Of a stretch of DNA of 64,000 nt, positions 3,656 through 29,404 are shown one piece after another. Made by a program: the position numbers and the translations under genes. The stretch's first letter is position 1. Every line of letters starts with the position of its first letter. A model generated the notes under the pieces. The model did not search any database. It worked only from the letters and a program-made list of their open reading frames with translations, and had not been told where the DNA came from. This DNA comes from Hydrogenophilaceae bacterium (GTDB taxonomy: Bacteria; Pseudomonadota; Alphaproteobacteria; Caulobacterales; Aquidulcibacteraceae): the NCBI GenBank assembly GCA_013389015.1, contig JACAEE010000007.1, positions 9,159 to 73,158 on the forward strand, read 5' to 3'.

Positions 3656-3772
3656 AGCTACCTTTCCCTCCCCTGGCGGCCGCGGCGAGCCGTTTTTCGA
3701 ACGGCGTACGTAAATTCGCGGCGGAGCGACGCTCCTCTTTGCCGCGTGGGTTTTCAATATCCTGGGCGCTGT

Positions 3773-3810
3773 TATCGCCGCTGCGATGCGTCCTCATCGC
3801 GGAGGCGATA
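3773..3810. promoter_or_regulatory. two tandem copies of the recurrent ATCGC-N4-GCGAT palindrome in the divergent TBDR / ligase promoter region
   Basis: TATCGCCGCTGCGATG (3773-3788) and CATCGCGGAGGCGATA (3795-3810), separated by 6 nt. Together they form a 38-nt imperfect palindrome. Confidence 0.5.
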
Positions 3811-3891
3811 GATGCGCCCCCCGGCTTGGCCTTGGTCTGTTGCGCCAGGACAACTAGCCAAGGCCGCAGGACGCCAAAGGGATCATCCAGC

Positions 3892-6998: not shown

Positions 6999-7008
6999 AG
7001 GCGGCGTG

Positions 7009-14480: not shown

Positions 14481-14509
14481 GCGTTCTCCAGCCGATGCGT
14501 CGCCATAGT

Positions 14510-15316: not shown

Positions 15317-15404
15317 CCTGTGTTCCTGTACCGGTCCGGCCGCCTCCCAGTCGCCATAACCAGGGCGACGCGGGCAAGGGGATGCGCAAGCGCGGCCCAG
15401 GATA

Positions 15405-15420
15405 TATCGACCAGTCGATA
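15405..15420. promoter_or_regulatory. ATCG-N6-CGAT palindrome in the divergent crotonase / CoA-transferase region
   Basis: TATCGACCAGTCGATA has perfect 7-bp arms and a 2-bp spacer. Confidence 0.45.
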
Positions 15421-15508
15421 CTCCCCGCCCGCCGGGGCCGCTCCGCTTGCCGGCGCCGTCACTTTCCCGACATGCAAGAGGCTCGGACGAAAATGGGGAC
15501 CCGCAGGC

Positions 15509-16735
15509 ATGCCCTCACAGGCGCTATCGGGAGTGCGAGTGCTGGATCTCAGCCGCGTGCTGGCCGCGCCTCTGGCGGCCCAGATGCTGGGCGACCTCGG
15601 CGCCGAAGTCATCAAGGTCGAACGCCCGGGGACCGGCGACGAAGCACGTGACTACGGCCCCCCCTTCCTCAAGGACAGGGACGGCGCGCCGACACGCGAC
15701 GCCGCCTTCTATCTGAGCGCCAACCGAAACAAGAAGTCGATCACCGTCGATCTCGCCAACCGCGAAGGACAAGACATCATCCGCGCGCTGGCGCAGCGCG
15801 CCGACATCGTGATCGAGAACTTCAAGACCGGGACGCTGCGCAAGTACGGGCTCGACTATGAGAGCCTGCGCGCGCTGAATCCGCGGCTCATCTATTGCTC
15901 GATCACCGGCTTCGGCCAGACCGGGCCGCTGGCGGAGAAGCCCGGCTATGACGGCGTGTTCCAGGCCATGAGCGGCCTGATGAGCGCGACGGGCCATCCC
16001 GACGAAACGCCAGGCGGCGGGCCGCTCAAGATCGGCATCTCGATGGTGGACATTCTCACCAGCCATTACGCCGTCAGCGCCATGCTTGCTGCGCTCTATC
16101 ATCGCGACCTGCATGACGGGCCCGGGCAATATATCGACCTGGCGCTCCTCGATTGCGGGATCGCCTCGCTTTCGCACTACGCCATGAACTATCTCGTCTC
16201 GGGCGTCTTGCCGCCGCGCCGCGGCAATGGCGGCTTCGGCGGCGTGCCGTCGCAGTCGTTCCGCTGCGCGGATCGCGACATCTTCCTTGTCGCGGGCAAC
16301 GACGCCCAGTTCAACCGTTTCTGCGCGGCGATCGAGCGGAGCGATCTCGCCAAGGACGTCCGCTTTTCAAGCACGCGCGCGCGAATCGAGAACCGCGACG
16401 CTTTGCTCGCCATCCTGGACCAGGAGATGCTGCGCCGCCCGGCGGCGGAATGGATCGAACGGCTGGACGCGGCGGAGGTGCCGGCGAGCCTGGTGAACAC
16501 GCTGGCGGATGCGCTCGAGCACCCGCAAGTGCGCCATCGCGAGATGCTGCAGAGCGTGGAGCATCCTCTCGCCAGCGAGATCCAATTGCTGCGCAATCCG
16601 ATTCGGCTTTCGGAGACGCCGATCGGAACCTGCAGCGCGCCGCCCGTGGTCGGCCAGCACACCGCCGAGATCCTGCAATCCCTCGGCTATGACGAAGCCA
16701 GAATCGCCGACCTGCGCCGGGCGCGCGTGGTCTAG
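15509..16735 (+). CDS. family III CoA-transferase (CaiB/BaiF family; racemase-like)
   Basis: MPSQALSGVRVLDLSRVLAAPLAAQMLGDLGAEVIKVERPGTGD, and ITGFGQTGP. The first 338 codons of the 746-aa track ORF are antisense to the crotonase gene and were rejected. Confidence 0.9.
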   Translation: MPSQALSGVRVLDLSRVLAAPLAAQMLGDLGAEVIKVERPGTGDEARDYGPPFLKDRDGAPTRDAAFYLSANRNKKSITVDLANREGQDIIRALAQRADIVIENFKTGTLRKYGLDYESLRALNPRLIYCSITGFGQTGPLAEKPGYDGVFQAMSGLMSATGHPDETPGGGPLKIGISMVDILTSHYAVSAMLAALYHRDLHDGPGQYIDLALLDCGIASLSHYAMNYLVSGVLPPRRGNGGFGGVPSQSFRCADRDIFLVAGNDAQFNRFCAAIERSDLAKDVRFSSTRARIENRDALLAILDQEMLRRPAAEWIERLDAAEVPASLVNTLADALEHPQVRHREMLQSVEHPLASEIQLLRNPIRLSETPIGTCSAPPVVGQHTAEILQSLGYDEARIADLRRARVV

Positions 16736-16765
16736 TCCAAATCCTCTCCGCGACAGGAGCCGATC

Positions 16766-17551
16766 ATGACCGACAAGATCATCACCCAGAAGGACGGCGC
16801 GGTGGGGCGCCTCATCTTCAACAATCCCGAAAAGCTGAACGCGATCTCGCTGGAGATGTGGGAGGGGCTCGGCCGTGCGGTCGACGTGTTCGAGGATGAT
16901 CCGGAGGTCCGGGTGATCGTCGTCTCCGGCGCGGGCGGCAAGAGCTTCATCGCCGGCGCAGACGTCTCCAAATACGGCGACGAGCGCATGGGCCGTGAGG
17001 CGCAGGAGCATTATGCGCAGACGGGCGAGAAGTCGCTCAAGGCGCTCTACAATTCCAAGAAGGTGACCGTCGCGGCGATCGATGGGTGGTGCATCGGCGG
17101 CGGCATCTCGGTGGCCGTGTGCTGCGATCTGCGCTATTGCTCGGACAAGTCGAAGTTCGGCCAGCCCGCCATGCGCTACGGCATCGGCTACCGCTATTCG
17201 AGTCTCCGGCGCCTCGTCGACATCATCGGCGTGCCCGCGTGCAAAGACATGCTCCTCGGCGGGCTTCAGTTCGACGCGGAAGAAGCGCTGAAGAAGCACC
17301 TCGTCGGCCGCGTCATTCCTGAAGCGGAGTTCGACGCCTGGATCGAAAAGACCGTGAACGGCATCGCCCAGGGCGCGCCGCTCACCGGCCACCAGATCAA
17401 GTACACGCTCAACGAAATCTGCAAGGACCCGGGCGATCGCAACACCGAACGCTGCGAAGAGCTCTTCCAGATCTGCTATGCTTCCGACGACTACAAGGAG
17501 GGCGTGGCGGCGTTCGCGGAGAAGCGGAAGCCGGTGTTCAAGGGGACGTAA
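16766..17551 (+). CDS. enoyl-CoA hydratase/isomerase family protein
   Basis: RLIFNNPEKLNAI, VSGAGGKSFIAGADV, and AAIDGWCIGGGISVAVCCD. Confidence 0.9.
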   Translation: MTDKIITQKDGAVGRLIFNNPEKLNAISLEMWEGLGRAVDVFEDDPEVRVIVVSGAGGKSFIAGADVSKYGDERMGREAQEHYAQTGEKSLKALYNSKKVTVAAIDGWCIGGGISVAVCCDLRYCSDKSKFGQPAMRYGIGYRYSSLRRLVDIIGVPACKDMLLGGLQFDAEEALKKHLVGRVIPEAEFDAWIEKTVNGIAQGAPLTGHQIKYTLNEICKDPGDRNTERCEELFQICYASDDYKEGVAAFAEKRKPVFKGT

Positions 17552-17562
17552 GCGGCGCGAGC

Positions 17563-18747
17563 ATGAATCTCGACTTCTCACCCGAGGAGCACGCTTTCCG
17601 CCAGGACGTGCGCGCCTTCATCGACGCCAATCTGCCGGCGGCGACGCGGGCCAAGGTGATGGGCGACCGCCCGCTCGAGAAGGCCGACATCGTCGGCTGG
17701 CAGCGCATCCTGAACCAACGCGGCTGGGCGACGCCCTCATGGCCCAAGGAATATGGCGGCCCGGGCTGGAACGCGGTCGAACGCTATATCTTCCTTGACG
17801 AGCTGCATCAGGGCGGGGCGCCTGAGCCGCTCTCGTTCAACGTCGCCATGCTGGGGCCGGTCGTCATCGCCTATGGCACGGACGACCAGAAGCGGCGCCT
17901 GCTGCCCCGTCTCGCCAATCTCGACGATTGGTGGTGCCAGGGGTTCTCCGAACCCGGCGCGGGCTCCGACCTTGCGAGCCTGACGTGCAGCGCGCGCCGC
18001 GACGGCGATCACTACATCGTCAACGGCCAGAAGATCTGGCAGGGCATGGGCCATTGGGCGGATTGGGGATTCTTTCTTGTCCGCACCGATCCCGACGCCC
18101 CGAAGAAGCAGGCCGGCATCACGTTCCTGCTGATCGACATGAAGTCGCCCGGCGTGTCGCTCTCGCCGATCATCACGCTGGACGGGCGCCATGAGGTGAA
18201 TTCAGTCTTCCTCGACGACGTGCGCGTGCCGATCGAAAACCGGCTCGGCGAGGAGAACCAGGGTTGGACTGTCGCCAAGCACCTGCTCGGCAATGAACGC
18301 ACCAACATCGCGCGCGTCGGCGTCACCAAACGCATCCTGGCGCGCGCGCGCCGCGCCGCGACGGCTACGGGGCTCTTCAGCGCGCCGCTGTTCGCCGCGC
18401 GGCTCGCGCGCATCGAGGTCGCGCTGCAAGCCGTTGAGACGTTGCAGCTGCGGGTGCTGGCGGCGCAGATCAAGGACAACAGGCCCGACTCCCGCGCCTC
18501 CATTCTCAAGCTGCGCAGCGTCGAGGTGCGTCAGGCGGCGGGCGAGTTGCTGATGGAGGCCTGCGGGGCGCAAGGCCTCTCGTTCGTGCGCTTCGAGGCG
18601 GGCGAACGCCCGCCTTTCGACGAGGCCGACGAGGGCTGGTCGGCGAGCGCGGTGTGCTTCAATCTGCGGGCGGCGTCGATCTATGGCGGCGCCAGCGAAG
18701 TCCAGCGCAACATCCTCGCCGACACGGTGCTTGGACTGGGGCGCTAG
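17563..18747 (+). CDS. acyl-CoA dehydrogenase, class A (FadE-like, C-terminal IYGGxxE motif)
   Basis: WWCQGFSEPGAGSDLAS, and a C-terminal SIYGGASEVQRNILADTVLGL. Confidence 0.85.
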   Translation: MNLDFSPEEHAFRQDVRAFIDANLPAATRAKVMGDRPLEKADIVGWQRILNQRGWATPSWPKEYGGPGWNAVERYIFLDELHQGGAPEPLSFNVAMLGPVVIAYGTDDQKRRLLPRLANLDDWWCQGFSEPGAGSDLASLTCSARRDGDHYIVNGQKIWQGMGHWADWGFFLVRTDPDAPKKQAGITFLLIDMKSPGVSLSPIITLDGRHEVNSVFLDDVRVPIENRLGEENQGWTVAKHLLGNERTNIARVGVTKRILARARRAATATGLFSAPLFAARLARIEVALQAVETLQLRVLAAQIKDNRPDSRASILKLRSVEVRQAAGELLMEACGAQGLSFVRFEAGERPPFDEADEGWSASAVCFNLRAASIYGGASEVQRNILADTVLGLGR

Positions 18748-18760
18748 CTGAAAGGCTGCC

Positions 18761-19342
18761 GTGATGAGCACCCCGCTCGAAGAGCGTATCGACCGAATTG
18801 AATCGATCCTCGCGATTCAGCAGCTGGCGATACGCTACGCCATCGCCATCGACAGCCGCGATCTCGACGCTTGGCTCATGCTCTTTCCCGACGACGTCGA
18901 TTGCGGCAGGCGCGGGCGCGGACGCGAGGCGCTGCGCGGCTTCATCGCCCCGTTGCTGAAGGATTTCTACCGCAGCGTCCACCTCATCTGCGGCCATCAG
19001 ATCGACTTGACGGGGCCCGACCAAGCCACAGGACGGGTCTATTGCCGCGCCGAACACGAGCGCGGCGAGGAATGGATCGTGCAGGCGATCTGCTATTTCG
19101 ACGCCTATGTGCGCCAGAACGGCGTCTGGTATTTCGCCCGGCGCGAGGAAGATTTCTTCTATTCAGCTGACGCGCTGGAGCGGCCCCAGCAGGCGGAATT
19201 CACGCGCTGGCCGGGACCGGCGCCGAAGTTCCAACCGAAGATGATGGTGTCGCGCTTTCCGACTTGGCGCTCGTTCTGGGCAGATTGCGCGGACGACGCG
19301 CTGAGCACGGTGACCCGCCAGCCGGGGCCGCGGCGGGACTGA
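18761..19342 (+). CDS. SnoaL-like / NTF2-fold protein
   Basis: RIESILAIQQLAIRYAIAIDSRDLDAWLMLF and YFDAYVRQNGVWYFARRE are typical of SnoaL_4 / ring-hydroxylating beta-subunit-like folds. GTG start at 18761 (ATG at 18764). Confidence 0.7.
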   Translation: MMSTPLEERIDRIESILAIQQLAIRYAIAIDSRDLDAWLMLFPDDVDCGRRGRGREALRGFIAPLLKDFYRSVHLICGHQIDLTGPDQATGRVYCRAEHERGEEWIVQAICYFDAYVRQNGVWYFARREEDFFYSADALERPQQAEFTRWPGPAPKFQPKMMVSRFPTWRSFWADCADDALSTVTRQPGPRRD

Positions 19343-19422
19343 CCGGGCCATCACGCCTGCGATAACGCCACTGATGGACCCAAAAAGCCGTCTGATCGGC
19401 CCCGCTGGACAGCGCCGAAAAA

Positions 19423-19476
19423 TTGACGCTGCGGGCGGCCGGGCGTATGGTTTTCTGAACATCGTTCGAAAATCCA
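19423..19476 (+). promoter_or_regulatory. candidate sigma70-type promoter with an overlapping imperfect palindrome upstream of the crotonase / NMO / TauD / LuxEC operon
   Basis: TTGACG (19423-19428), 17-nt spacer, TATGGT (19446-19451). The imperfect palindrome TGGTTTTCTGAACATCGTTCGAAAATCCA (19448-19476) overlaps the -10 and +1 positions. Confidence 0.4.
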
Positions 19477-19492
19477 TACTCCGAGGGCGGGC

Positions 19493-20395
19493 ATGAGGAA
19501 ATACCTCCGCAGTACCGATCATCTCCTGTTCGAGGCCCAGAACCGGATCGCGCGCATCACCCTCAATCGCCCGGAAAAGCGCAACGCGCTGTCGCCGGCG
19601 ATGCTCGCGGAATTGAGGGACGCGCTGATCGAAGCGGACGCGTCAGTCGATGTGAACGTCGTCATCCTGGAGGGCGCGGGCAAGGATTTCTGCGCCGGCT
19701 ACGATCTCGCCGGCGCCTATGCCGGCTACAAGGACGGCGAAGGGCCGCCCTGGGACGAGGCCGCGTATCGCACGCACAACGCCTCGCTCGATGACGATTG
19801 CTGGAACATGGAGCAGACGCAGCAGCTGACGCTGGCGCTGTTCGACATGCACAAGCCGGTGATCGCGAAGGTGCAGGGCAATTGCATGGCCGGGGGCACC
19901 GATCTGGCGCTCATGTGCGATTTCATCATCTGCGCCGAAGAGGCCAAGATCGGCTTTCCGGCGACGCGCGCCAACGGCACGCCGCCGAACCAGATGTGGG
20001 TCTATCATGTCGGCCCGCAATGGGCGAAACGGCTGATGATGACCGGCGATTGCCTGTGGGGCCGCGACGCGGCGCGCATCGGCCTTGTGCTCGACGCCGT
20101 GCCCGCCGCCGAACTCGACGACGCGGTCAACGAACTCGCGCGGCGGATCAGCTTCGTCGATGCGGAGCTGCTCTCCGCGCACAAGCGCATCGTCAACGCC
20201 GCGCTCGAACTGCAAGGCGCAAAGACCTTGCAGCGCTTCGCCGTGGAGATGGACGCGCGCGCGCACCTCTCGAAGGGCCCGCGGCGCACCCAGTTCAAGG
20301 CCGACATGGCTGAACACGGACTGAAGACCGCGCTCAAGAACCGCGACGAACCGTTCGGCGACGGAATGGTCAGTGCGCATTGGCTGAAGAAGTGA
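19493..20395 (+). CDS. crotonase-fold protein with a long insertion and C-terminal extension
   Basis: RITLNRPEKRNAL, LEGAGKDFCAGYD, and VQGNCMAGGTDLALMCD. An insert of about 35 aa (YAGYKDGEGPPWDEAAYRTHNASLDDDCWN) lies between the oxyanion-hole segments. Confidence 0.85.
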   Translation: MRKYLRSTDHLLFEAQNRIARITLNRPEKRNALSPAMLAELRDALIEADASVDVNVVILEGAGKDFCAGYDLAGAYAGYKDGEGPPWDEAAYRTHNASLDDDCWNMEQTQQLTLALFDMHKPVIAKVQGNCMAGGTDLALMCDFIICAEEAKIGFPATRANGTPPNQMWVYHVGPQWAKRLMMTGDCLWGRDAARIGLVLDAVPAAELDDAVNELARRISFVDAELLSAHKRIVNAALELQGAKTLQRFAVEMDARAHLSKGPRRTQFKADMAEHGLKTALKNRDEPFGDGMVSAHWLKK

Positions 20396-20409
20396 CGAAG
20401 GAAACCGCT

Positions 20410-21216
20410 GTGTCCGAAGAGTTTCTGATCGACGAGCCGATCGAGGGCGTGAAGCGCATCACGCTCAACCGCCCGGAGTCCATGAACGCGTTCACATTCC
20501 CAATGTACACGCGCTTCATCGAGATCCTGAACGCGATCAAGTTCGATCCGGCGACCCGCGTCGTCATCCTGACCGGGACCGGCAAAGGCTTCTGCACCGG
20601 GCACGATCTGCGCGCCGGGGGCTCGCCCGCCTGGGTCGATCCCAATGTCGGCAAGGCCTATTCCACCAAGTACACGATGAGCGTGCTGGCGCAAATTCCC
20701 CCGCTCATGCGCTCGCTGCCGCAGCCGATCATCTGCGGCGTCAACGGCACGGTCGCGGGCATGGGCTACGCGCTGCCGCTCGCAAGCGACATCGCCATTG
20801 CGGCCAAGTCGGCGAAGTTCGTCAACTCGATCCACAACGCCGCCACCGGCTGCGAACTCGGCATGAGCTACATGCTGCCGCGCGCGGTGGGCCCGCAACG
20901 CGCCGCCGAGATCCTGCTCACCGCGCGCACGGTGTTCGCCGATGAGGCCGAGCGCATCGGGCTCGTGCTGAAGACGGTCGCGGACGAGGACCTGCAGGAC
21001 GCCTGCCTCGACCTCGCCAAGGCGATCGCGGTCAATGTGCCGCTCGGCGTGTGGACCACCAAGCAATCGATGTGGCTCAACGAGAACGCCGGCAGCCTCG
21101 AACAAGCGATGGAGGTGGAAACGCGCGCCGTGTTCATGGCGCAATCCACCGAGGACGCGGCCGAGAAGCGCAAATCCTTCCTCGAAAAGCGCGCGCCCAA
21201 GTTCAGCAACAAATGA
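20410..21216 (+). CDS. enoyl-CoA hydratase/isomerase family protein
   Basis: KRITLNRPESMNAF, LTGTGKGFCTGHD, and GVNGTVAGMGYALPLASD. Start uncertain: GTG 20410 has AAGGA 8 nt upstream, and the alternatives are GTG 20392 (GTGA overlap) or TTG 20380. Confidence 0.85.
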   Translation: MSEEFLIDEPIEGVKRITLNRPESMNAFTFPMYTRFIEILNAIKFDPATRVVILTGTGKGFCTGHDLRAGGSPAWVDPNVGKAYSTKYTMSVLAQIPPLMRSLPQPIICGVNGTVAGMGYALPLASDIAIAAKSAKFVNSIHNAATGCELGMSYMLPRAVGPQRAAEILLTARTVFADEAERIGLVLKTVADEDLQDACLDLAKAIAVNVPLGVWTTKQSMWLNENAGSLEQAMEVETRAVFMAQSTEDAAEKRKSFLEKRAPKFSNK

Positions 21217-22121
21217 GCGGCGGAGACGGCGTTTTGACCTTCGAAACCATCCTCTATCAGGTCGAAGACGGCGTGGCGACGATCACGCTCAATCGTCCCG
21301 ACGTGTTCAACGCCATGAACCCGCTGATGACGGAGGAGCTGATCGCCGCGTTCGACCGCGCCGACGCGGATGACGCCGTGCGCGCGGTGATCGTCACCGG
21401 CGCCGGCAAAGGCTTCTGCGGGGGCGCCGATCTCTCCAAGGGCGCCTCCATCTTCGACAAGAACAGCCGCGCCGACTCGCCCATGCGAGAGGACGGCACG
21501 TTCGACTACAGCAAGGAATCGGCGCGCGACGGCGGCGGCAGGCTCGCGCTGCGCATCTTCCAGAGCCTCAAGCCGGTGATTGCGGCGGTGAACGGGCCCG
21601 CGGTGGGCGTGGGCGCCTCGATGATCCTGCCGATGGACATCCGCCTCGCCAGCGAGACGGCGAAAGTCGGTTTCGTCTATGCGCGGCGCGGCATCGTGTT
21701 CGAGTGCTGCTCCTCCTACTTCCTGCCGCGCATCGTCGGCATCAGCCGCACGCTCGAATGGTCGCTCAGCGGGCGCGTGATGCCGGCCGAAGAACTCAAG
21801 GCCGGCGGCCTCTTCCGCGACGTGCTGCCGGCGGATCAGCTCATGCCGGCGGCGCGCGCGATCGCGCGCGAGATCGCCGAGCACACGTCTCCAGTGTCGG
21901 TGGCGTTGATGCGGCAGATGGCGTGGCGCGGGCTCTCCATGGAGCATCCGATGGAGGCGCATCGCATCGAAAGCCGCGGCATCTGCACGCGCGGCAAGAG
22001 CGCCGACGCCAAAGAAGGCGTGCAGTCGTTCCTCGAAAAACGGCCGCCGAACTTCCCCGGCAAGGTCTCCACCGACATGCCTGATTACTTCCCGTGGTGG
22101 GAAGAGCCGAAATATTTCTAA
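21213..22121 (+). CDS. enoyl-CoA hydratase/isomerase family protein
   Basis: ATITLNRPDVFNAM, VTGAGKGFCGGAD, and AAVNGPAVGVGASMILPMD. ATGA overlap with the upstream gene. Confidence 0.9.
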   Translation: MSGGDGVLTFETILYQVEDGVATITLNRPDVFNAMNPLMTEELIAAFDRADADDAVRAVIVTGAGKGFCGGADLSKGASIFDKNSRADSPMREDGTFDYSKESARDGGGRLALRIFQSLKPVIAAVNGPAVGVGASMILPMDIRLASETAKVGFVYARRGIVFECCSSYFLPRIVGISRTLEWSLSGRVMPAEELKAGGLFRDVLPADQLMPAARAIAREIAEHTSPVSVALMRQMAWRGLSMEHPMEAHRIESRGICTRGKSADAKEGVQSFLEKRPPNFPGKVSTDMPDYFPWWEEPKYF

Positions 22122-22139
22122 CGCTGAGATGACGAGCCC

Positions 22140-23216
22140 ATGAAGACGGCCATCACTGAACTCTTCGGCGTCAAGTATCCCATTTTGCTGGCCGGCATGG
22201 GCCGCGTCGCGCTGCCGAACATGGTGGCGGCCGTGTCCAACGCCGGCGGCCTGGGCGTCTTGGGCGCCGGTTCATCGCCGCCGGACCTGACGCGCGAAAT
22301 GATCCGCGAGATCCGCACGCTCACCGACAAGCCCTTCGGCGTGAACGCGCCGCTGATGATCCCCAACGGCAAGGAGAACGCCGAGGTCGCGCTGCAGGAG
22401 AAGGCGCCGATCATCAATTATTCGATGGGGCGCGGCGATTGGATCGCAAAGGCCGCGCACGCCTATGGCGGCAAGGTCATGGCGTCGGTCACCAATGTCC
22501 GCTTCGCCGAGCGCGCGCAGGCGCATGGCGCCGACGCCGTCATCGCCGCGGGCATGGAGGCCGCCGGGCACGCGGGCGACGTGACGACGTTCGTGCTCAT
22601 TCCGCGCCTGGTCGAGACCCTCAGAATCCCGGTGATCGCGGCCGGCGGCGTCGCCAATGGCGCAGGCCTCGTCGGCGCGCTGGCGCTTGGCGCGGCCGGC
22701 GTCTCGATGGGCACGCGCTTCCTGCTCACCCAGGAAAGCCCGCTGCATCCGAACTTCAAGCAAGCCGCGCTCGGCCTCGACGTTTCCGACACGATCTTCT
22801 CGGACCGTTTCGACGGCGTCTTCAACCGCGTGATGAAGACGCCCGCCGCTGTGCGCGCGGAAAAGACCTGGATGAATCCGTTCCAGGTGTTCCTCGATTC
22901 CTTCGGGATCGCGCGCGAGCTGCGCACGCCCTATCTCAAGCTTTTCGCGCAAGTGATCACCGCGGGGCCCAAACAGACGCTCGAACTCATGCGCATGTCG
23001 CAGATGCTGAAGATGCATACGATCACGCTGACGACCGGCGACATCGACGCCGGCATGACCGCGAGCGGGATGTCGGTCGGCCTCGTGCACGACGTGCCCA
23101 CGATCGCAGAGCTGATGGAGCGCATGGTGGCCGAAGCGAAATCAGCGCACGCGCGCCTGAACGCCAGCATGGAAGATGCGCCGCCCGTTCCCGCCCTCGC
23201 CGAGAACGCCGCATAA
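22140..23216 (+). CDS. nitronate monooxygenase (NMO / 2-nitropropane dioxygenase, FabK-like FMN TIM barrel)
   Basis: ELFGVKYPILLAGMGRVALPNMVAAVSNAGGLGVLG, and IAAGGVANGAGLVGALALGAAGVSMGTRF. Confidence 0.85.
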   Translation: MKTAITELFGVKYPILLAGMGRVALPNMVAAVSNAGGLGVLGAGSSPPDLTREMIREIRTLTDKPFGVNAPLMIPNGKENAEVALQEKAPIINYSMGRGDWIAKAAHAYGGKVMASVTNVRFAERAQAHGADAVIAAGMEAAGHAGDVTTFVLIPRLVETLRIPVIAAGGVANGAGLVGALALGAAGVSMGTRFLLTQESPLHPNFKQAALGLDVSDTIFSDRFDGVFNRVMKTPAAVRAEKTWMNPFQVFLDSFGIARELRTPYLKLFAQVITAGPKQTLELMRMSQMLKMHTITLTTGDIDAGMTASGMSVGLVHDVPTIAELMERMVAEAKSAHARLNASMEDAPPVPALAENAA

Positions 23217-23231
23217 GGAGGAGGATCCGCG

Positions 23232-24179
23232 ATGAGGATTGAGGCCAAGCCGATCGAGCCGTTCGGGCGGGAGGTTTCCGGCGTCGATTTCACCCGTCCC
23301 TTCACGGCGGAGGAAAAGGCCGCCATCCGCGCGGCTTGGGTGGAGGGCGGCATCGCGATCTTTCGTGATTGTCCATCGGAGGACGCGCACCTCGCGCTAA
23401 GCCGCTGCTTCGGCGAGCCCGAGCCGTCGGCGACGAAGAAGCTCAATCTCGATCGCAACCCCTACATCATGGCGCTTGATCAGGACGAGAAGACGCCGGT
23501 CAACATCTACGAGGTCGACGGCGAGCGGCGCACCGGCTGGCTCGGCTGGCACTGGGACCAGGCGTTCATGCCCGAGATCGTGCGCGGCGCCGCCTTGCGT
23601 ATGCTCGTGCCGGCGCGCGTAGCCGGCGAAACCGGCTTCATCCATGCGGGCGACGCCTATGACCGCCTGCCGCAATCGACCAAGGAGCGCATCGAAGGGC
23701 TCGAAGTCGTCTACCATTTCAACGGCGCCCAGGAACAGAACCGGTTCGGCTTTCCCAAGTCGCTCCGCCTCGTGGAACGCGACGCCGAGCAGGCCGCTTC
23801 GATCGAAAAGTACACGCGCGAATTCCCTCCCGTCGTGCATCCGCTGGTGATCACGCAACCGGAATCGGGGCGCCGGCTCCTCAAGCTCTCGCCCATGCAT
23901 GCGCGCTCCATCCTTGGAATGGCGCAGGCCGAGAGCGACGCCCTGCTCCATATGCTCGCCGAACATCTCGTCGATCGGCGCTACGCCTATTTTCACAGCT
24001 GGCGCGAAAACGACGTCGTCGTGTGGGATAACTGGTCCGTCATCCATTGCGCCAACGGCGTGCCGCCGGGCGTCATCCGGCGCGCACAGCGCACCACCAT
24101 CCTGGGCGACTACAAGCTCGGCCGCTATCTCGACCCCGCCAAGCGGCTGAGCGATCATGCCGCCCGCCTCGTAGATTGA
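23232..24179 (+). CDS. TauD/TfdA family Fe(II)/2-oxoglutarate-dependent dioxygenase
   Basis: HxD in GWHWDQAF, then VVVWDNWSVIHCA with the distal His, then RRAQRTTI. Confidence 0.85.
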   Translation: MRIEAKPIEPFGREVSGVDFTRPFTAEEKAAIRAAWVEGGIAIFRDCPSEDAHLALSRCFGEPEPSATKKLNLDRNPYIMALDQDEKTPVNIYEVDGERRTGWLGWHWDQAFMPEIVRGAALRMLVPARVAGETGFIHAGDAYDRLPQSTKERIEGLEVVYHFNGAQEQNRFGFPKSLRLVERDAEQAASIEKYTREFPPVVHPLVITQPESGRRLLKLSPMHARSILGMAQAESDALLHMLAEHLVDRRYAYFHSWRENDVVVWDNWSVIHCANGVPPGVIRRAQRTTILGDYKLGRYLDPAKRLSDHAARLVD

Positions 24180-24186
24180 GCGTCCC

Positions 24187-25533
24187 ATGTCTGTGCGGCA
24201 AGAATTGCTCGACGCGATCGTAACGCCCGGCGTGTTCGACCGCCCGTATCCCGATCTTCAATCCAAGCAGCTGGAGGCGGCGCGTGCGCTGTTCGCCGAG
24301 CGCAAGGAGCAGATCGGCCTCTTGCGCCGGCGCGCGCAGGACGCTGGCGTAACCGAGATCGCCTCGCTCGCCGATCTCGTCCCGCTGCTGTTTGCGCACA
24401 CGGCGTACAAATCCTATCCGCAATCTTTCATCGACCAAGGGCGCTGGGACCGCATGGGGCAATGGCTGCAGACGCTCTCCGTCGACCGCACAGACAATGT
24501 CGATGTGAGCGGCGTGCGCGACGTCGACGACTGGATCCATCGCCTGCGCGAGGCCGGCCACATGGTGCTCGCCACATCGGGCTCGAGCGGCAAGTGCTCC
24601 TTCCTCAATCATACACGCGGCGACAGCGCCATGAAGCGGCGCCATGCGTCGGTCGCGGTCGGATGGCCGTTCGTGCGCGGCGCGCAGGACCGCGCATGCT
24701 TCTTCCTTGGCCCGAGCGAAGGGCCGAACAGCGCCATCGAGGCGGCTCAGAACAACGCCGCCAATTTCGGACGCCCCGGCGACATCCACTTCCTCACCGA
24801 CGAACCGCTGCTGATGAGCGACATCAGCCGCGCCGCCGCGTTGCGCACGCGTATGGCCGAGGGCACGGTGACGCCCGGCGAGATCGAGGCGTTCGAGGCG
24901 GACTCGCGCGCCAAGGCCGCGCGGATGGATGCGGCGCTCGACGCGATGACGGAGAAGATCCTCGCGCGCCGTCACGAGCCGATCTATCTCACAGGCCTGT
25001 GGGCGCAGCACATGATGATCATCGCGCGCGCGCGCAAGCTCGGCGTGGGCGACGGCGAGTTCCATCCGCAGAGCGTCATCAGCGCCGGCGGCGGCGTCAA
25101 AGGCGTGGCGCTGCCGGAGGACTACAAGGAGCAGGTCGCGCGGTTCTATGGCGACGTGATCCGACCGACGGCGTATGGGATGACGGAGATGGCGCAAATG
25201 ATGCCGCGCTGCGAGCACATGCGCTATCACCGCCCGCCCGGCCTCATCTGGCTTCTGCTCGATGCGGCTGGCGAGCGCCTGCTCAGCGCCGAGGATGGCC
25301 ACAACGGGATTGTCGAGGGCCGCTTCGGCTTCCTCGATCTTCTCTATGAAGGCCGCTGGGGCGGCCTGATCAGCGGCGACAAGGTGAGCATCGATTTCGC
25401 GCCGGAATGCCCGTGCGGGCGGCCAGGCCCCACCATTCTCGACACCATCACCCGGTTCTCGCAATCCGGCGATGATCACATCGGCTGCGCGGGAACGATC
25501 GATTCCTATATCCGGAGCTCGCTGACGTCATGA
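24187..25533 (+). CDS. LuxE-like acyl-protein synthetase / PaaK-superfamily adenylating enzyme
   Basis: 448 aa with P-loop LATSGSSGKCSF, an N-terminal LVPLLFAHTAYKSYP segment, YGMTE, and C-terminal CPCGRPGPTI. It overlaps the LuxC-like gene by ATGA. Confidence 0.7.
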   Translation: MSVRQELLDAIVTPGVFDRPYPDLQSKQLEAARALFAERKEQIGLLRRRAQDAGVTEIASLADLVPLLFAHTAYKSYPQSFIDQGRWDRMGQWLQTLSVDRTDNVDVSGVRDVDDWIHRLREAGHMVLATSGSSGKCSFLNHTRGDSAMKRRHASVAVGWPFVRGAQDRACFFLGPSEGPNSAIEAAQNNAANFGRPGDIHFLTDEPLLMSDISRAAALRTRMAEGTVTPGEIEAFEADSRAKAARMDAALDAMTEKILARRHEPIYLTGLWAQHMMIIARARKLGVGDGEFHPQSVISAGGGVKGVALPEDYKEQVARFYGDVIRPTAYGMTEMAQMMPRCEHMRYHRPPGLIWLLLDAAGERLLSAEDGHNGIVEGRFGFLDLLYEGRWGGLISGDKVSIDFAPECPCGRPGPTILDTITRFSQSGDDHIGCAGTIDSYIRSSLTS

Positions 25534-26915
25534 ACGTCCAAGCCAAGCCGCCGCCGCTGCCGGCGCCGCACGTCGTCAAGGGCGAGGCCGTCTTCGGCGT
25601 CGAAGCGGATTACGGCCGCTTCGCCACGCCGAAGCTTGATCTTGATGCGATGGTCTGGCCGCGCAACGAACCTGCGCCGGCGCGCGATGTTCCGGTCGCC
25701 GAGATCATGGACGTGCTCGTCGCCGTCGGCGAGCGATTGATGAGCGATCCGGACGGATCGCTCGCGGAGGCGCTCGAGCGCAGCGTGAAGACCAATCCGT
25801 TGCCGCGCGACGTGCTCGAGCGTTCGTACGCGGATCTTGGGCGCATCTTCAATCGCCGCGCGATGATGTTTCAGATCGAGCAAGAACTGGGCGGCGCCGA
25901 CGTGATCGACGGCTGGCGGGAAGTCGCCACGCCATCGGGGCGGCTGGCGCGCATACGCGCGTTCCCTACCAGGCTCGCGCACATCATCGCCGGCAATGCG
26001 CCGGGCGTGGCGGCGCAGTCGATCATCCGCGGAGCGCTGACCAAGTGCGTCAATCTGATCAAGCTGCCGTCCAACGATCTCTACAGCGCCACCGCGATCC
26101 TGCGCGCGCTCGCAGCCGTGGCGCCCAGGCATCCGGTGACGCGCTCGTTCTCGGCTGCGTACTGGCGCGGCGGCGACGCCAGCGTCGAAGGGCGGCTCTT
26201 CCGGCCGCAATTCTTCGACAAGATCGTCGCCTGGGGCGGGGAAAGCACGATCCGCGGCGCGCTCAAATATGTCGGCCCCGGCTTCGAACTGGTGGCGTTC
26301 GATCCGAAAACCTCGATCTCGCTGATCGGGCGCGAGGCGTTCGCTTCCGACGCCACGCTCGACGACGTGACGAGCCGCGCGGCGCTCGATGCGACGCTGA
26401 TGAACCAGCAGGCGTGCGTGTCCAGCCGGTTCCAGTTCGTCGAAGGCGCGGGGGAGGACGTCGATCGCTATTGCGCGGCGCTGCAGGCCAAGCTCGGCGA
26501 GGAGCGGCCGACCTCGTCACGCACGCCGATTCCGCTGGCCGGCGATATTCGCGACGAGTTGGATGGGCTGCGCGCGTTTGAGGACGAATACCGGGTGTTC
26601 GGCGGCTATGACGGGCGCGGCCTCGTCGTGCGCTCGGACGCGCCGGTCGACTTCTATCCCGACAACAAGATCGTCAATGTGGTGCGCGTCGCGGACCTCG
26701 CCGAGGCGGTGCGCCATGTCAGCGTTGCGACGCAGACGGTGGGCGTCTTTCCTGCGCGGCGGCGCATAGAACTGCGCGATGCGCTGTGCTCAGCCGGCGC
26801 GCAACGCGTGGCCGCGCTCGGCCTGGCGCAACCCGAAACCGGCCTGCCGCATGACGGATTCTATCCGCTGCACCGGTTCGTGCGCTGGGTCACCGACGAG
26901 GGCGAGCGGGACTGA
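25530..26915 (+). CDS. LuxC-like acyl-CoA (acyl-protein) reductase, ALDH superfamily
   Basis: 461 aa. HIIAGNAPGVAAQSIIRGALTKCVNLIKLPSND matches the LuxC HI(L/I)AGN...K.SS.D signature. The candidate catalytic Cys is in MNQQACVSSR. Confidence 0.7.
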   Translation: MNVQAKPPPLPAPHVVKGEAVFGVEADYGRFATPKLDLDAMVWPRNEPAPARDVPVAEIMDVLVAVGERLMSDPDGSLAEALERSVKTNPLPRDVLERSYADLGRIFNRRAMMFQIEQELGGADVIDGWREVATPSGRLARIRAFPTRLAHIIAGNAPGVAAQSIIRGALTKCVNLIKLPSNDLYSATAILRALAAVAPRHPVTRSFSAAYWRGGDASVEGRLFRPQFFDKIVAWGGESTIRGALKYVGPGFELVAFDPKTSISLIGREAFASDATLDDVTSRAALDATLMNQQACVSSRFQFVEGAGEDVDRYCAALQAKLGEERPTSSRTPIPLAGDIRDELDGLRAFEDEYRVFGGYDGRGLVVRSDAPVDFYPDNKIVNVVRVADLAEAVRHVSVATQTVGVFPARRRIELRDALCSAGAQRVAALGLAQPETGLPHDGFYPLHRFVRWVTDEGERD

Positions 26916-26922
26916 ACGGCGC

Positions 26923-27426
26923 CTACGCGCCCTCCTCGTCGGCCAGCCATTCGCGGAACTTCTGGAAGTGCCGTGTCCTGTCGCGCAGGGCGAATTCTCC
27001 GCGAGCGCGCGAGAGCACGACGCCGGTGGAGAGCAGGATCAGTTCGCCGGCGTTGAGCCAGCGATTGCGCTCCACCTTCTCGCGCCAGGCGACCAGCTTC
27101 AGCGGCCGCTCGATCGGCACGGGACGGAGGAAGTCGACGGTAAGGCTCGCCGTCACCGTCATGAGCCCCGACAGCAGCGCCAAATGGCCCAAGGCCTCGT
27201 CCATCGCCGACGCCGTCCAGCCGCCGTGCGCGACGCCCGGGCCGCCTTCATGATCGCGCGGGCAAGCCAGCAGCGTCTCGCTGCGAAACGGACCGATCAG
27301 CGCCTCGCTGGTGAGGCCGAGACGGCAATGTCCCTGACGCAGGCATTCCGCGCACAGAACCACATCGCCTCCCGGCGCGCGCGGCGCCGCCGGCGCCTCG
27401 GCGGGCGATGGAGAATCATCGGTCAT
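26923..27426 (-). CDS. PaaI-type hotdog-fold thioesterase
   Basis: VAHGGWTASAMDEALG core motif, about 167 aa starting at MTDDSPSP. It lies 5 nt downstream of the GntR gene on the same strand. Confidence 0.7.
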   Translation of the reverse strand: MTDDSPSPAEAPAAPRAPGGDVVLCAECLRQGHCRLGLTSEALIGPFRSETLLACPRDHEGGPGVAHGGWTASAMDEALGHLALLSGLMTVTASLTVDFLRPVPIERPLKLVAWREKVERNRWLNAGELILLSTGVVLSRARGEFALRDRTRHFQKFREWLADEEGA

Positions 27427-27431
27427 TCCGC

Positions 27432-28241
27432 CTACGCCCCCCGCCGCGGCGCCTTGATGACGATCCCGCCGCGCCCGCCGGCGACGAGTTCGTCCAGCTG
27501 CGCGCGAAGATGGCGGCGCCACCATTTCTCCGCCCCTTCGCGATCGCGTTCGCGCAGCAGCTCGATGAGCCGCTCCTTGGCGCGGATATGGCCGCGGCGC
27601 CCGCGCGCGGCTTCTTCGCCCTCGTAGATGAGGACATTGCCGATCTGCTCGGATTGCGCGCGCATCAGCTCACCCAAGATCTGCACGAACATGGAGAGAG
27701 TCGTGTTGGCGCAGATGTCGGCGAGGATCTGGTAGAAGCGCTCATGCTCGCGCGCGAACGCGTGCACGTCCTCCACCAGCGTCGCCTGCTGCGCGGCCGA
27801 TTGCGCCAGGCGCTGGATATCCTTCATGGCCGCCGTATCGGCGATGAAGCCCATGATGCTGGGTTCGATCGTCAGCCGCGCGACCGAGAAGTCCGCCTGG
27901 CTCGCGCCATGCGCTTCGAGATAGACGCCGGTATGCTCGGCCACCATGGCCGCGCCGGGCACATTGTAGCGCGCGCCGCCCGAGGCGCCGCGGGCGATGC
28001 GGACGAGGTGCTTGGCCTCCAGGATGCGCATGGCCTCGCGCACGGTGGGACGCGAGGCCTGGAAGCGCGCGCGCAATTCCGGCTCCGAAGGCAGCGCATC
28101 GCCGTGGCGAAGATTGTTGCGGCGGACATAGTCACGCACCCAATCCGCAATCAATTCAGCGGTTTTCGGCACTTTGAGGCTGTCGCCGAGGGGCGCCGCC
28201 CCCACCCCCGCAGACCGGGCCGCATGCTTCGTCATCGCCAT
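27432..28241 (-). CDS. GntR family transcriptional regulator, FadR (FCD) subfamily
   Basis: wHTH LPSEPELRARFQASRPTVREAMRILEAKHLV followed by an all-helical C-terminal domain. Start is MAMTKH at 28241 (or 28235). Confidence 0.85.
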   Translation of the reverse strand: MAMTKHAARSAGVGAAPLGDSLKVPKTAELIADWVRDYVRRNNLRHGDALPSEPELRARFQASRPTVREAMRILEAKHLVRIARGASGGARYNVPGAAMVAEHTGVYLEAHGASQADFSVARLTIEPSIMGFIADTAAMKDIQRLAQSAAQQATLVEDVHAFAREHERFYQILADICANTTLSMFVQILGELMRAQSEQIGNVLIYEGEEAARGRRGHIRAKERLIELLRERDREGAEKWWRRHLRAQLDELVAGGRGGIVIKAPRRGA

Positions 28242-28248
28242 TGTGATG

Positions 28249-28266
28249 CAATTATATATATAATTG
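28249..28266. promoter_or_regulatory. 18-bp perfect, almost pure A/T palindrome in the divergent GntR / amidohydrolase promoter region (candidate operator)
   Basis: CAATTATATATATAATTG. It overlaps a consensus TTGACA (28264-28269) on the plus strand and a TATAAT on the minus strand. Confidence 0.6.
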
Positions 28267-28315
28267 ACATTCCCGCAAGGGCCGGCGAGATTGCCAGGAC
28301 GCACAGGAGACAGCG

Positions 28316-29404
28316 ATGCCCCCCGCCGACGACAAGATCTGGGTGAACTCCGCCGACAGCCATGTCTGGGAGCCGCCGACGCTCTGGGAGGAGAACCTCC
28401 CCGCGCACTTGAAGTCGCGCGGTCCGCGGGTCGACCGGCGCGAGAAGGCGGACGTCTATATCGTCGACAATGAAGAAGTGATCTTCATGAAACCCGACAT
28501 GCTCGATGCGATCTCGCCGCCGGGCATGATGAATCTCGATCTTCGCATGGCCGATCTCGACCAGCAGGGAATCTGGGCGGAAGTCGTATTCGCCTCGACC
28601 GGGCTGTGGATGACGGTGATGACGGACCGCGAGCTGCAGCGCGAATGCACCCGCGTGTGGAACGACTGGGCGCATGCGGAGCTGATCAAGCGGTCCGAGC
28701 GCTATCTGCCGGCGGCGATGCTCTCCTCGATCAATGTCGAGGATGCGGCTGCGGAAGCCGAACGCGTCGCCAAGCTGGGGTTCAAAGTCCTGGCGTTCCC
28801 GACGACGCTGGTGGGCGGCGGCGAATACAACAATCCGGAGTTCGACAAGGTCTGGGCGGTCGCGCAAGAGGCCGGACTGGTGATCTCCTTCCACGTCGGC
28901 ACCGGGACGAAGGATCTCGTCGTCACGCGCGGCCCGGGCGGCGCCATCATCAATTATTGGGAGACGACCGTGCCGGCGCAGCGCTGCGTCGTGCACATGG
29001 TGTCGAGCGGCGCGCTCGACCGGTTTCCCAAGCTCAAGGTCATGACGGCCGAAGCCGGGGCGTCGTGGATGCCGGCGCTCGGCGACCGTCTGGATGAAGC
29101 CTACCGCCAGCACGGGCGCTGGATGAAGCCGAAGCTCGAGCGGCTGCCGAGCGACATCCTGAAGGCGCAGGTCTATTCATCGTTCCAGCATGACGAAACC
29201 GCCGTGCCGACCGCCATCCACAGCGACTACAAGAACATTCTCTGGGGATCGGACTATCCGCACCTCGAAGGCACCTTCCCGCGCACGCAGGAGGTGTTGC
29301 GCGAACTCTTCAAGGACGTGCCCGACGCCGTGCGCCATCGCGTGACGCTAGGCGCGTTCGAGGAATTGTTCGGCGTGCGCATGCCGGCGGCCCTGGCGGC
29401 ATGA
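28316..29404 (+). CDS. amidohydrolase-2 family protein
   Basis: VNSADSHVWEP (DxH-type N-terminal metal motif), FHVGTG, and WGSDYPHLEG. GGAGA RBS upstream. Confidence 0.85.
   Translation: MPPADDKIWVNSADSHVWEPPTLWEENLPAHLKSRGPRVDRREKADVYIVDNEEVIFMKPDMLDAISPPGMMNLDLRMADLDQQGIWAEVVFASTGLWMTVMTDRELQRECTRVWNDWAHAELIKRSERYLPAAMLSSINVEDAAAEAERVAKLGFKVLAFPTTLVGGGEYNNPEFDKVWAVAQEAGLVISFHVGTGTKDLVVTRGPGGAIINYWETTVPAQRCVVHMVSSGALDRFPKLKVMTAEAGASWMPALGDRLDEAYRQHGRWMKPKLERLPSDILKAQVYSSFQHDETAVPTAIHSDYKNILWGSDYPHLEGTFPRTQEVLRELFKDVPDAVRHRVTLGAFEELFGVRMPAALAA

Follow-up and report, generated by a model that had tools for sequence, protein, structure and literature searches.

A pair of overlapping genes was studied in a 64,000-nucleotide stretch of DNA from Hydrogenophilaceae bacterium (NCBI GenBank assembly GCA_013389015.1, contig JACAEE010000007.1, positions 9,159 to 73,158 of the forward strand). 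The whole stretch is called the window below, and positions are counted from its first letter. The first gene of the pair (24187-25533, plus strand) encodes a protein of 448 aa, assigned as a LuxE-like acyl-protein synthetase by comparison of its family profile with LuxE. The second (25530-26915, plus strand) encodes a protein of 461 aa, assigned by Pfam as a LuxC-family acyl-thioester reductase. By analogy with luminous bacteria, the two proteins would form a LuxCE-type, two-component carboxylic acid reductase that works independently of coenzyme A (CoA), consumes ATP and NAD(P)H and proceeds by an acyl-cysteine relay, a function that we consider reasonably probable. In this genome the pair is the last unit of an operon with three crotonase genes and genes for a FabK-like reductase and a TauD-family dioxygenase.

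Luciferase-free pairs of LuxE and LuxC are already known in non-luminous bacteria, from the literature and from annotation. New are a large, divergent LuxE-like family that carries no annotation, the regularity with which this family is paired with LuxC in the catabolic islands of bacteria from soil and fresh water, and a recurrent link to TauD.

The LuxC-family protein

The 461-aa protein scores 152.9 bits (1.5e-44) on the Pfam model LuxC (PF05893), against a cut-off of 21, and has no match to the Pfam model Aldedh at E<=0.01. As a control, the ordinary aldehyde dehydrogenase (ALDH) encoded at 57893-59470 scores 1e-135 on Aldedh and only 1e-7 on LuxC. The sole solved relative of the protein is LuxC of P. 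phosphoreum (PDB 7xc6, 1.9e-29). Genuine LuxC, taken from a luxCDE cassette, matches by tblastn only this gene in the window, with 30% identity (4e-37). A preliminary description, made from the sequence of the window, had called the protein LuxC-like, and these scores bear it out; the protein is not an ordinary ALDH. The protein is not an ortholog of luminous LuxC, because on the NCBIfam LuxC equivalog model NF052251 it reaches 137 bits against a cut-off of 750; judged by its profile scores it is a family member and not an equivalog.

Three motifs are present, HIIAGNAPGV at residues 151-160, LIKLPSND at 176-183 and NQQACVSS at 292-299. In the alignment to 7xc6, each residue of the last motif (26403-26426, plus strand) pairs with one of DQQACFST in P. 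phosphoreum LuxC. Cys296 stands at the position of the LuxC catalytic cysteine, which is Cys296 in P. phosphoreum too, and is predicted to be the acyl-accepting residue of the protein.

The LuxE-like protein

Direct searches with the 448-aa protein gave no match in Pfam (even at E<=10), in NCBIfam or among PDB sequences (phmmer), and none to the Pfam model AMP-binding_C. A profile of close homologs (alignment A1) found nothing in the PDB, and both BLASTP and tblastn comparisons with genuine LuxE were empty. The reference LuxE came from a luxCDE cassette on plasmid pOX38 and scores 656.9 bits on the Pfam model LuxE (PF04443), of which the gathering threshold is 24.9 bits.

The protein belongs to a well-conserved family of 775 clusters at 90% identity, or 855 representatives at 50% identity (E<=1e-3), found in Proteobacteria, Actinobacteria and on catabolic megaplasmids. 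Members from Brevundimonas, Pseudomonas, Ramlibacter and Rhizomicrobium are 63-69% identical. Nearly all are labelled 'hypothetical protein', and one UniRef name mentions a LuxE domain. In an alignment of 51 diverse family members (A2), 12 weakly match PF04443, with a best E-value of 3.5e-6, and 11 match AMP-binding. The best individually listed PF04443 score in the family is 23.9 bits; in that member the model is matched to position 384 of 391, near the C-terminus of the protein.

The profile built from A2 was aligned with genuine LuxE by hhalign at a probability of 97.2% (E 3.5e-11, 309 columns) and with the protein of a PaaK-like ligase open reading frame (ORF) of the window at 94.7% (E 6.2e-8), each of the two templates being a single sequence. 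A PF04443 protein from Pantoea gave 95.8% (E 6.7e-9). Profile homology is thus stronger to genuine LuxE than to a PaaK-type ligase. The PaaK-like ORF used (3739-5181) is a separate ligase with weak AMP-binding and AMP-binding_C_2 matches. The alignment to it stops at the hinge, at its residue 383 of 480, with about 22 query residues left. Because it ends there, the ligase C-terminal subdomain of about 97 residues has no counterpart in the LuxE-like family. The lack of this subdomain is an architectural hallmark of LuxE (PMC9157457).

The AlphaFold2 model of the protein has a pLDDT of 83.8. Its best Foldseek matches are ligases of the PaaK clade (E ~5e-9, TM ~0.5, 13-16% identity), a placement that would be expected of LuxE. 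On the profile comparisons the protein is assigned as a divergent LuxE-type synthetase, comprising the predicted adenylating N-terminal domain of the PaaK/LuxE clade and no C-terminal subdomain. The preliminary description had placed it as LuxE/PaaK-type. That reading found no direct database match, and the Pfam models it named for the pair gave a clear LuxC assignment and no LuxE match; the profile-profile comparison did show affinity to LuxE. Because this affinity is specific and the PaaK C-terminal subdomain is missing, the protein does not fall into the CapK/PaaK clade alone.

The candidate catalytic residues of LuxE have counterparts in the 448-aa protein. The P-loop TSGSSGK (residues 130-136, 24574-24594, plus strand), the A3 motif of ANL enzymes, aligns to SSGTNG of LuxE, and G132, G135 and S138 are near-invariant in A2. 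The motif GGGVKG (25087-25104, plus strand) contains K305, which is at least 90% conserved in A2; GGGVK305 aligns with GGGWK236 of LuxE. In P. phosphoreum LuxE, K238 is essential (PMC9157457), and K305 is the candidate equivalent of that catalytic lysine. The segment R-Y-H348-x-P-P aligns with RKHVPPW of LuxE, and CPCGR (CxCGR) lies at residues 408-412.

The C-terminal tail carries the motif GDDHIGC434AGT (25468-25497, plus strand; the C434 codon is 25486-25488). According to the family alignment, the cysteine is kept in 48 of the 51 diverse members, 9-25 residues from the C-terminus, within the motif GDD[HK]-x-x-C434-A-G. Residues 425-448 have a pLDDT below 50 in the model and are disordered. 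C434 aligns with the cysteine of ...DAKGCSLA... in the Pantoea PF04443 protein; the LuxE motif is TRxxKGCxLS, with the acylated Cys364 (PMC9157457). C434 is therewith predicted to be a self-acylation cysteine on a flexible arm. Another group of residues, C342, H348, C408 and C410, is invariant across A2 and looks like a candidate metal site, possibly for zinc. LuxE has residues that correspond to C342 and H348, and the PaaK-like ORF has an equivalent of CxCGR.

Gene arrangement of the pair

The stop of the 448-aa gene overlaps the start of the 461-aa gene by 4 nt (ATGA). Upstream, the gap from the third crotonase gene (ECH3) to the gene of the nitronate monooxygenase (NMO) family is 18 nt, that from the NMO-family gene to the TauD gene 15 nt, and that from the TauD gene to the 448-aa gene 7 nt. 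The coordinates, the plus strand, the gaps of 7-18 nt and the overlap given in the preliminary description all proved exact, and each motif read there (SGSSGK, CxCGR, HIIAGNAPGV, LIKLPSND, NQQACVSS and HWD...H of the TauD protein) is present. Its statement that LuxA, LuxB and LuxD are missing also holds: about 60 ORFs from all over the window were scanned with Pfam and none matched Bac_luciferase or LuxD, and genuine LuxD used as a tblastn query returned nothing in the window.

Pairing with LuxC across genomes

Loci with a LuxE-like gene were collected from 13 genomes, 80 metagenome contigs, and annotated plasmids and chromosomes, 101 loci in all. Loci whose sequence extends 1.2 kb or more beyond the LuxE-like gene on the downstream side were counted as informative (n=82). 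LuxC adjoins the LuxE-like gene in 61 of them, directly downstream in 59 and directly upstream in 2; it lies within a few kb in another 8 and is absent from 13. The pairing is far beyond chance. It occurs in four bacterial classes (Alpha-, Beta- and Gammaproteobacteria and Actinobacteria), with a Mycobacterium homolog that is 38% identical. The gene order is flipped in more distant relatives, on Novosphingobium pLA3 and in Paraburkholderia; the latter has two LuxE-like paralogs and one LuxC. RefSeq labels LuxC in these two as 'acyl-CoA reductase (GO: bioluminescence)' and the partner as 'hypothetical protein'.

Two neighbour counts were made. The first used homology to genes of the window, within 8 kb, at the 47 loci flanked on each side by 5 kb or more of sequence. 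LuxC was present in 43 of the 47, TauD and crotonase in 18 each, acyl-CoA dehydrogenase (ACAD) in 12 and NMO in 7. The second used de novo clustering of all neighbours at the 101 loci; clusters 14 and 26 were discarded as antisense artefacts. Genes of variable position in this count were those for short-chain dehydrogenases/reductases (SDR, 37 loci), crotonases (20 loci) and major facilitator superfamily (MFS) transporters (11 loci). TauD was found at 18 loci, right after LuxC in about 10, and NMO at 13, upstream of the pair. An ArsR/MarR-type regulator with a double helix-turn-helix adjoins the pair on either side at 17 loci, and an AraC regulator, mostly divergent and about 1.1 kb upstream, was seen at 16. 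Other neighbours were ALDH (12 loci, nearby), aldo-keto reductase (AKR; 9 loci, flanking the pair, 4 of them directly after LuxC on the same strand) and Old yellow enzyme (8 loci, mostly upstream). From these counts, what is conserved is the module of two genes itself, to which a regulator of its own and a single redox partner, differing between loci, are usually added. The LuxE-like/LuxC pair is a portable, separately regulated module.

The exact order NMO-TauD-LuxE-like-LuxC was found only in close Hyphomonadaceae and Caulobacterales relatives (L001 and probably L009), and the close relative L002 has neither NMO nor an upstream TauD. The survey of gene neighbourhoods proposed in the preliminary description thus found a widespread pair, and the full four-gene order only among close relatives. 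Recruitment into a CoA-thioester pathway, as proposed there, describes this genome, where the pair does lie in a CoA island; because the four-gene order is confined to close relatives, it is one of many contexts, with varying neighbours. Parts of the context do recur farther away. Orthologs of the first two crotonase genes, ECH1 and ECH2 (60-90% identity), are found no more than 10 kb from the pair in L001, L003, L014, L058/59 and L086. Pseudomonas citronellolis has three crotonase genes and NMO 6-10 kb from the pair, with SnoaL_4 next door, and Rhizomicrobium has TauD and ECH1/ECH2 near it, at 72-89% identity. The crotonases ECH1 and ECH2 of the window (19493-21216) are 84-89% identical to those encoded at 18823-20541 of L003, a Rhizomicrobium metagenome-assembled genome, whereas the LuxE-like and LuxC proteins of the two are only 65% identical. 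This excess would reflect either unusually strong constraint or a horizontally transferred crotonase block.

Some single loci may be mentioned. In Brevundimonas vitis (L015, CP067977.1) the unit is minimal, an AraC regulator followed by LuxE-like, LuxC and TauD genes, and it adjoins genes for a 748-aa sulfatase, a TonB-dependent receptor, an MFS transporter and two members of the sulfotransferase family. This context hints that some versions of the pair act on sulfated or sulfonated compounds. In the Pseudomonas loci L014 and L018 a full-length carboxylic acid reductase (CAR; AMP-binding, PP-binding and NAD_binding_4, about 1150-1180 aa) is encoded 2-3 kb from the pair, so that two different acid-reducing systems stand side by side.

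Proposed mechanism and alternatives

Carboxylate-to-aldehyde chemistry, already suggested in the preliminary description, is the best inference, because the module is of LuxE type and LuxC type; no luciferase accompanies it. In the proposed sequence of events the 448-aa protein would adenylate a carboxylate with ATP, by means of the TSGSSGK P-loop, K305 and the YGMTE motif, and form an acyl-AMP. The acyl group would then move to the protein's own Cys434, on the disordered 25-residue tail that takes the place of the ligase C-terminal subdomain. This tail would hand the thioester to Cys296 of the LuxC-like partner, which would reduce it with NAD(P)H and free the aldehyde. The pair thereby probably converts a carboxylate that is not manageable as such into an aldehyde, and the neighbours (TauD here; AKR, SDR or ALDH elsewhere) would process the aldehyde or a related intermediate. 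The LuxCE mechanism is established in luminous bacteria (PMC9157457, PMC6279958). We infer the chemistry, complex, cofactor and substrate of the pair from that system. An aldehyde product seems to fit the neighbours, as an AKR or SDR gene often follows LuxC and ALDH genes are nearby; canonical LuxE-LuxC operons have an SDR gene next in line.

Several observations weigh against this mechanism. Acid-to-aldehyde reduction is unusual in a catabolic island, and the neighbouring ALDHs would undo it. No direct sequence match joins the 448-aa protein to LuxE, and every family member checked is below the Pfam LuxE threshold. The spacer from R423 to the tail cysteine is about 11 residues, compared with about 5 in LuxE. 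Compared with LuxE, the family is extended at the N-terminus by a helical stretch, has an insert of about 60 residues (~205-262) and differs further in the CxCGR/C342/H348 cluster; because of these features, its chemistry could differ from that of LuxE. Finally, the LuxE-like gene with its Cys tail intact stands without LuxC nearby at the 13 loci noted above, several of which have a crotonase gene instead. Loci of this kind are L007, L043, L044, L049 and L064 (also L035, L081, L088 and L099), which keep both P-loop and Cys tail. They typically have an NMO/FabK-like gene upstream and crotonase, TauD or SnoaL_4 genes downstream, and several show the order NMO-LuxE-like-crotonase. This suggests another acceptor for the acyl-cysteine, or a LuxC encoded elsewhere.

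The best-surviving alternative, though unlikely, is a CoA-dependent route. In it the 448-aa protein would act as a PaaK-like acyl-CoA ligase in truncated form, and free acyl-CoA would be reduced to the aldehyde by the LuxC-like protein, as in the SauT/SauS system, with no acyl-protein relay. The fold and CxCGR are common to the 448-aa protein and PaaK-type ligases, the genes around the pair all encode CoA-thioester enzymes, and LuxC does take acyl-CoA in vitro (PMC9157457; bioRxiv 10.1101/2025.08.11.669332). But the ANL C-terminal subdomain, without which such a ligase can neither take up the thioester-forming conformation nor bind CoA, is missing from the 448-aa protein. Such a route would also leave unexplained the near-invariant tail cysteine, aligned with the acyl-cysteine of LuxE, and the tight translational coupling to LuxC is typical of a relay system.

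The pair might instead run in the oxidative direction, for which we see little chance. An aldehyde from a TauD-type cleavage or another step would be oxidised by the LuxC-like protein to acyl-Cys296 and passed to Cys434, leaving as acyl-AMP or acid, with energy conserved, or to CoA for beta-oxidation. Of the specific genes around the pair, TauD is met most often; relatives from the TauD/TfdA/AtsK group that have been characterised give off aldehydes or glyoxylate, and the context with crotonases, ACADs and thiolases is catabolic. Against this, making ATP from a thioester via acyl-AMP is thermodynamically unfavourable, and ordinary CoA-acylating ALDHs need one protein for the same job. LuxC moreover lacks the catalytic Glu and Asn of ALDHs and is described as sequestering its aldehyde product against re-oxidation (PMC9157457, PMC12041015).

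Equally doubtful is the notion that the pair is a mobile two-gene module at the operon end with no part in the crotonase/NMO/TauD pathway. The wide variation of its neighbours between genomes would agree with it, as would the divergent AraC or ArsR/MarR-type regulator that the pair often has to itself elsewhere and the lack of NMO and upstream TauD in the close relative L002. However, only 7 nt separate the pair from the TauD gene, no promoter-like site was seen between the TauD gene and the 448-aa gene, and distant taxa (P. citronellolis, Rhizomicrobium and soil metagenomes) again have ECH1/ECH2 orthologs, NMO, TauD and SnoaL_4 in the vicinity of the pair. Least probable of all is tailoring on a carrier arm, in which the Cys434 tail would serve as a pantetheine-free carrier whose tethered acyl group is hydroxylated by TauD or modified by the crotonase or FabK-like partners before reductive release by the LuxC-like protein: some TauD-family enzymes act on carrier-tethered substrates, TauD stands right after LuxC or before the LuxE-like gene in many loci, and LuxC-less loci keep the Cys tail with NMO and crotonase flanking the LuxE-like gene, but TauD is absent from 29 of the 47 loci and the crotonases of the window look like ordinary CoA-dependent enzymes.

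The two-protein reductase with its acyl-cysteine relay is therefore retained as the preferred reading. A wider proposal built on it must be called speculative and rather improbable. The pair, often with TauD and its own AraC or ArsR/MarR-type regulator, would be a widespread inducible device for catabolism or detoxification, which turns intractable carboxylates into aldehydes on a protein-borne cysteine arm, a carrier chemistry free of CoA and pantetheine; TauD, crotonase and the FabK-like reductase may act on the arm too. If this were true, the device would be a new entry route for the degradation of blocked acids (e.g., ether-, sulfonate- or ring-bearing) in soil and freshwater bacteria.

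Comparison with known systems

The luminous LuxE-LuxC system (P. phosphoreum complex, PDB 7XC6; PMC9157457) shares with the pair a LuxC-family partner with an aligned catalytic cysteine (QQAC) and a synthetase without the ANL C-terminal subdomain that has the GGGxK lysine, R-x-H-x-PP and a flexible Cys tail. The two genes are functionally paired in the luminous system and, by prediction, in the window. In contrast to the luminous system, the window has no LuxA, LuxB or LuxD and its context is catabolic. Its synthetase exceeds LuxE by 75 residues, has a more extended spacer in the tail and the CxCGR/C342/H348 cluster, and falls below the Pfam LuxE threshold. The two genes of the window adjoin and overlap, whereas the luminous pair is split by luxDAB.

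The preliminary description had called the locus its best candidate for an undescribed system, a term which is too strong, since luciferase-free LuxE-LuxC pairs are annotated in other bacteria. Such pairs lie in flagellin glycosylation islands of Aeromonas (PMC7874193), and PF04443 LuxE occurs with LuxC and SDR, and no luciferase, on plasmids of Pantoea dispersa and Lactiplantibacillus plantarum. These canonical non-luminous operons resemble the window in the order synthetase to reductase, the overlap or short gap, a third redox gene after LuxC and the lack of luciferase. Their synthetases, of 369-374 aa, score 54-97 bits on Pfam LuxE and so exceed its threshold, whereas the window family is below it, and the typical third gene of the window family is TauD or AKR, with AraC or ArsR/MarR regulators.

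PaaK-type phenylacetate-CoA ligases (PDB 2Y27, 4R1L, 6WUQ) are the best structural matches of the 448-aa protein and share the P-loop, YGxTE and CxCGR near the hinge. They differ in having a C-terminal subdomain of about 100 residues with a catalytic lysine, and they make CoA thioesters; the 448-aa protein is without this subdomain. CARs carry out the net chemistry proposed for the pair, from acid, ATP and NADPH to aldehyde via an enzyme-bound thioester. A CAR is a single polypeptide with adenylation, carrier and reductase parts, a phosphopantetheine arm and an SDR-type reductase, whereas the pair consists of two proteins, with a predicted Cys arm and a reductase of ALDH fold.

The SauT/SauS sulfoacetate pathway of Cupriavidus necator (PMC10413351) is likewise a catabolic conversion of a carboxylate to an aldehyde (ligase and acylating ALDH, NADPH) that enables later bond cleavage. 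Unlike the proposed relay it requires CoA, and its enzymes, an ordinary AMP-binding ligase and a member of Pfam Aldedh, have no family-level homology to the pair. TabE of tambjamine biosynthesis (bioRxiv 10.1101/2025.08.11.669332) is a LuxC-related thioester reductase outside bioluminescence. It differs from the pair as a stand-alone reductase of acyl-CoA or acyl groups on acyl carrier protein (ACP), ATP-independent, without a LuxE-type partner and in a biosynthetic context.

A 2025 review of the ALDH superfamily treats LuxC/LuxE for luminous bacteria only. A literature search found no characterised pathway with a LuxE-like/LuxC pair or its gene order, in agreement with the preliminary description, which knew of none with this combination. 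Two candidates were set aside: a paper on a naphthenic-acid MarR regulator, in which lux is merely a reporter, and the 'lux-like' locus mel2 of Mycobacterium, which has no LuxE homolog and a different make-up.

Because Pfam and NCBIfam miss the LuxE-like family and RefSeq calls its members 'hypothetical protein', half of a widespread machine, predicted to reduce acids, is invisible in annotation. Recognition of the family provides a testable mechanism, for which culturable hosts are available in Brevundimonas vitis, Pseudomonas citronellolis, P. lini and Novosphingobium pentaromativorans. Two-protein carboxylate reductases that are free of CoA are of biocatalytic interest as a source of aldehydes and alcohols. 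LuxCE belongs to a very small number of such systems, and natural variants adapted to substrates other than fatty acids would be useful. It is counter-intuitive that acids should be reduced in degradation islands at the expense of ATP and NADPH; this and the repeated association with TauD may point to a catabolic strategy not yet recognised.

Neighbouring genes of the operon

The pair closes a run of eleven densely packed genes, all on the plus strand (14495-26915). The TauD/TfdA-family Fe(II)/2-oxoglutarate dioxygenase (315 aa, 23232-24179, plus strand) scores 168 bits (5e-49) on Pfam TauD, against a cut-off of 27. In its sequence, HWD at residues 107-109 supplies H107-x-D109, H273 is the likely distal histidine, and R284 and R288 follow, a spacing that we take to be TauD-like on the model of E. 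coli TauD. The protein appears from this to be a normal family member with its predicted iron and 2-oxoglutarate site intact. Its closest PDB relatives are taurine, aryloxyalkanoate and alkyl-sulfate dioxygenases, enzymes which hydroxylate beside a heteroatom and release an aldehyde or glyoxylate.

The NMO-family FMN protein (358 aa, 22140-23216, plus strand; assigned by Pfam NMO and PDB comparison) scores 5e-55 on Pfam NMO and 1e-70 on the FabK model TIGR03151, under the cut-off of the latter. Among PDB sequences, FabK enoyl-ACP reductases match it at 6.6e-61 (5gvj) to 1e-49, and true NMOs only at about 1e-28 or worse. Because it is closer to FabK and lies in a CoA-thioester operon, an enoyl reductase is likelier than an oxygenase, and the product is probably a FabK-like enoyl-thioester reductase. 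The earlier view of two oxygenases next to the pair is doubtful for this reason.

Three crotonase genes precede these two, as had been stated in the preliminary description: ECH1 (19493-20395), ECH2 (~20392-21216) and ECH3 (21213-22121), all on the plus strand. Pfam ECH_1 matches all three (4e-44 to 4e-47), and successive genes overlap by 4 nt. Farther upstream, also on the plus strand and assigned by Pfam, are genes for a CoA-transferase III (746 aa, 14495-16735), a crotonase (16766-17551), an ACAD (17563-18747) and a SnoaL_4 protein (18761-19342). The arrangement from 14495 to 19342 is syntenic in L001 and L002. In the CoA-transferase III protein the Pfam domain spans only residues 344-723, and the N-terminal ~340 residues may be a degenerate second transferase domain.

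The operon with the pair ends at 26915, and the two genes that follow are on the minus strand. The first, convergent to the LuxC-like gene, encodes a 4HBT/PaaI-type thioesterase (26923-27525, minus strand; Pfam 4HBT 6e-11). The stop codons of the two genes are only 7 nt apart, and the true start of the thioesterase gene is probably internal to this ORF. The thioesterase could have an editing or release role. In L019 and on the Paraburkholderia plasmid, too, genes for PaaI or 4HBT thioesterases stand close to the pair. The second is a GntR/FCD regulator gene (27432-28304, minus strand; Pfam GntR 2.7e-14, FCD 1.2e-13), divergent from an Amidohydro_2-thiolase-ligase unit that starts at 28316. An ORF at 27408-28346 on the plus strand was rejected as spurious, as it matches nothing and is antisense to the GntR gene.

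An AT-rich near-palindrome, TGCAATTATATATATAATTGACA, lies at 28240-28270, where the GntR/FCD regulator and Amidohydro_2 genes diverge across 11 nt, and overlaps a promoter-like site at 28235-28264. From its sequence it is likely an operator. Another promoter-like site, at 19423-19451, lies upstream of ECH1 and is not statistically significant. In the scan of the window for promoters and terminators the counts were no different from those in shuffled sequence. Three of the promoter-like sites do lie between genes, at plausible places, but this evidence is weak.

Remainder of the window

The G+C content of the window is about 66%. Its nearest relatives are metagenome-assembled genomes of Hyphomonadaceae and Caulobacterales, with protein identities of 85-89%. 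The remainder of the window is a large CoA-thioester catabolic island with many ACADs, crotonases, thiolases, ligases and SDRs. It also encodes a FadB-like protein, a P450, an AKR, an ALDH, IclR and GntR regulators and a TonB receptor. A lipid or an alicyclic acid is proposed as its substrate class. A gene for an APH/EcKL-type phosphotransferase (5949-6998) overlaps an ACAD gene (6973-8295); the pairing recalls the ACAD10/11-type route for the catabolism of 4-hydroxy acids. A gene of the 'ecdysteroid 22-kinase family' is also located near the LuxE-like/LuxC pair on the Paraburkholderia plasmid.

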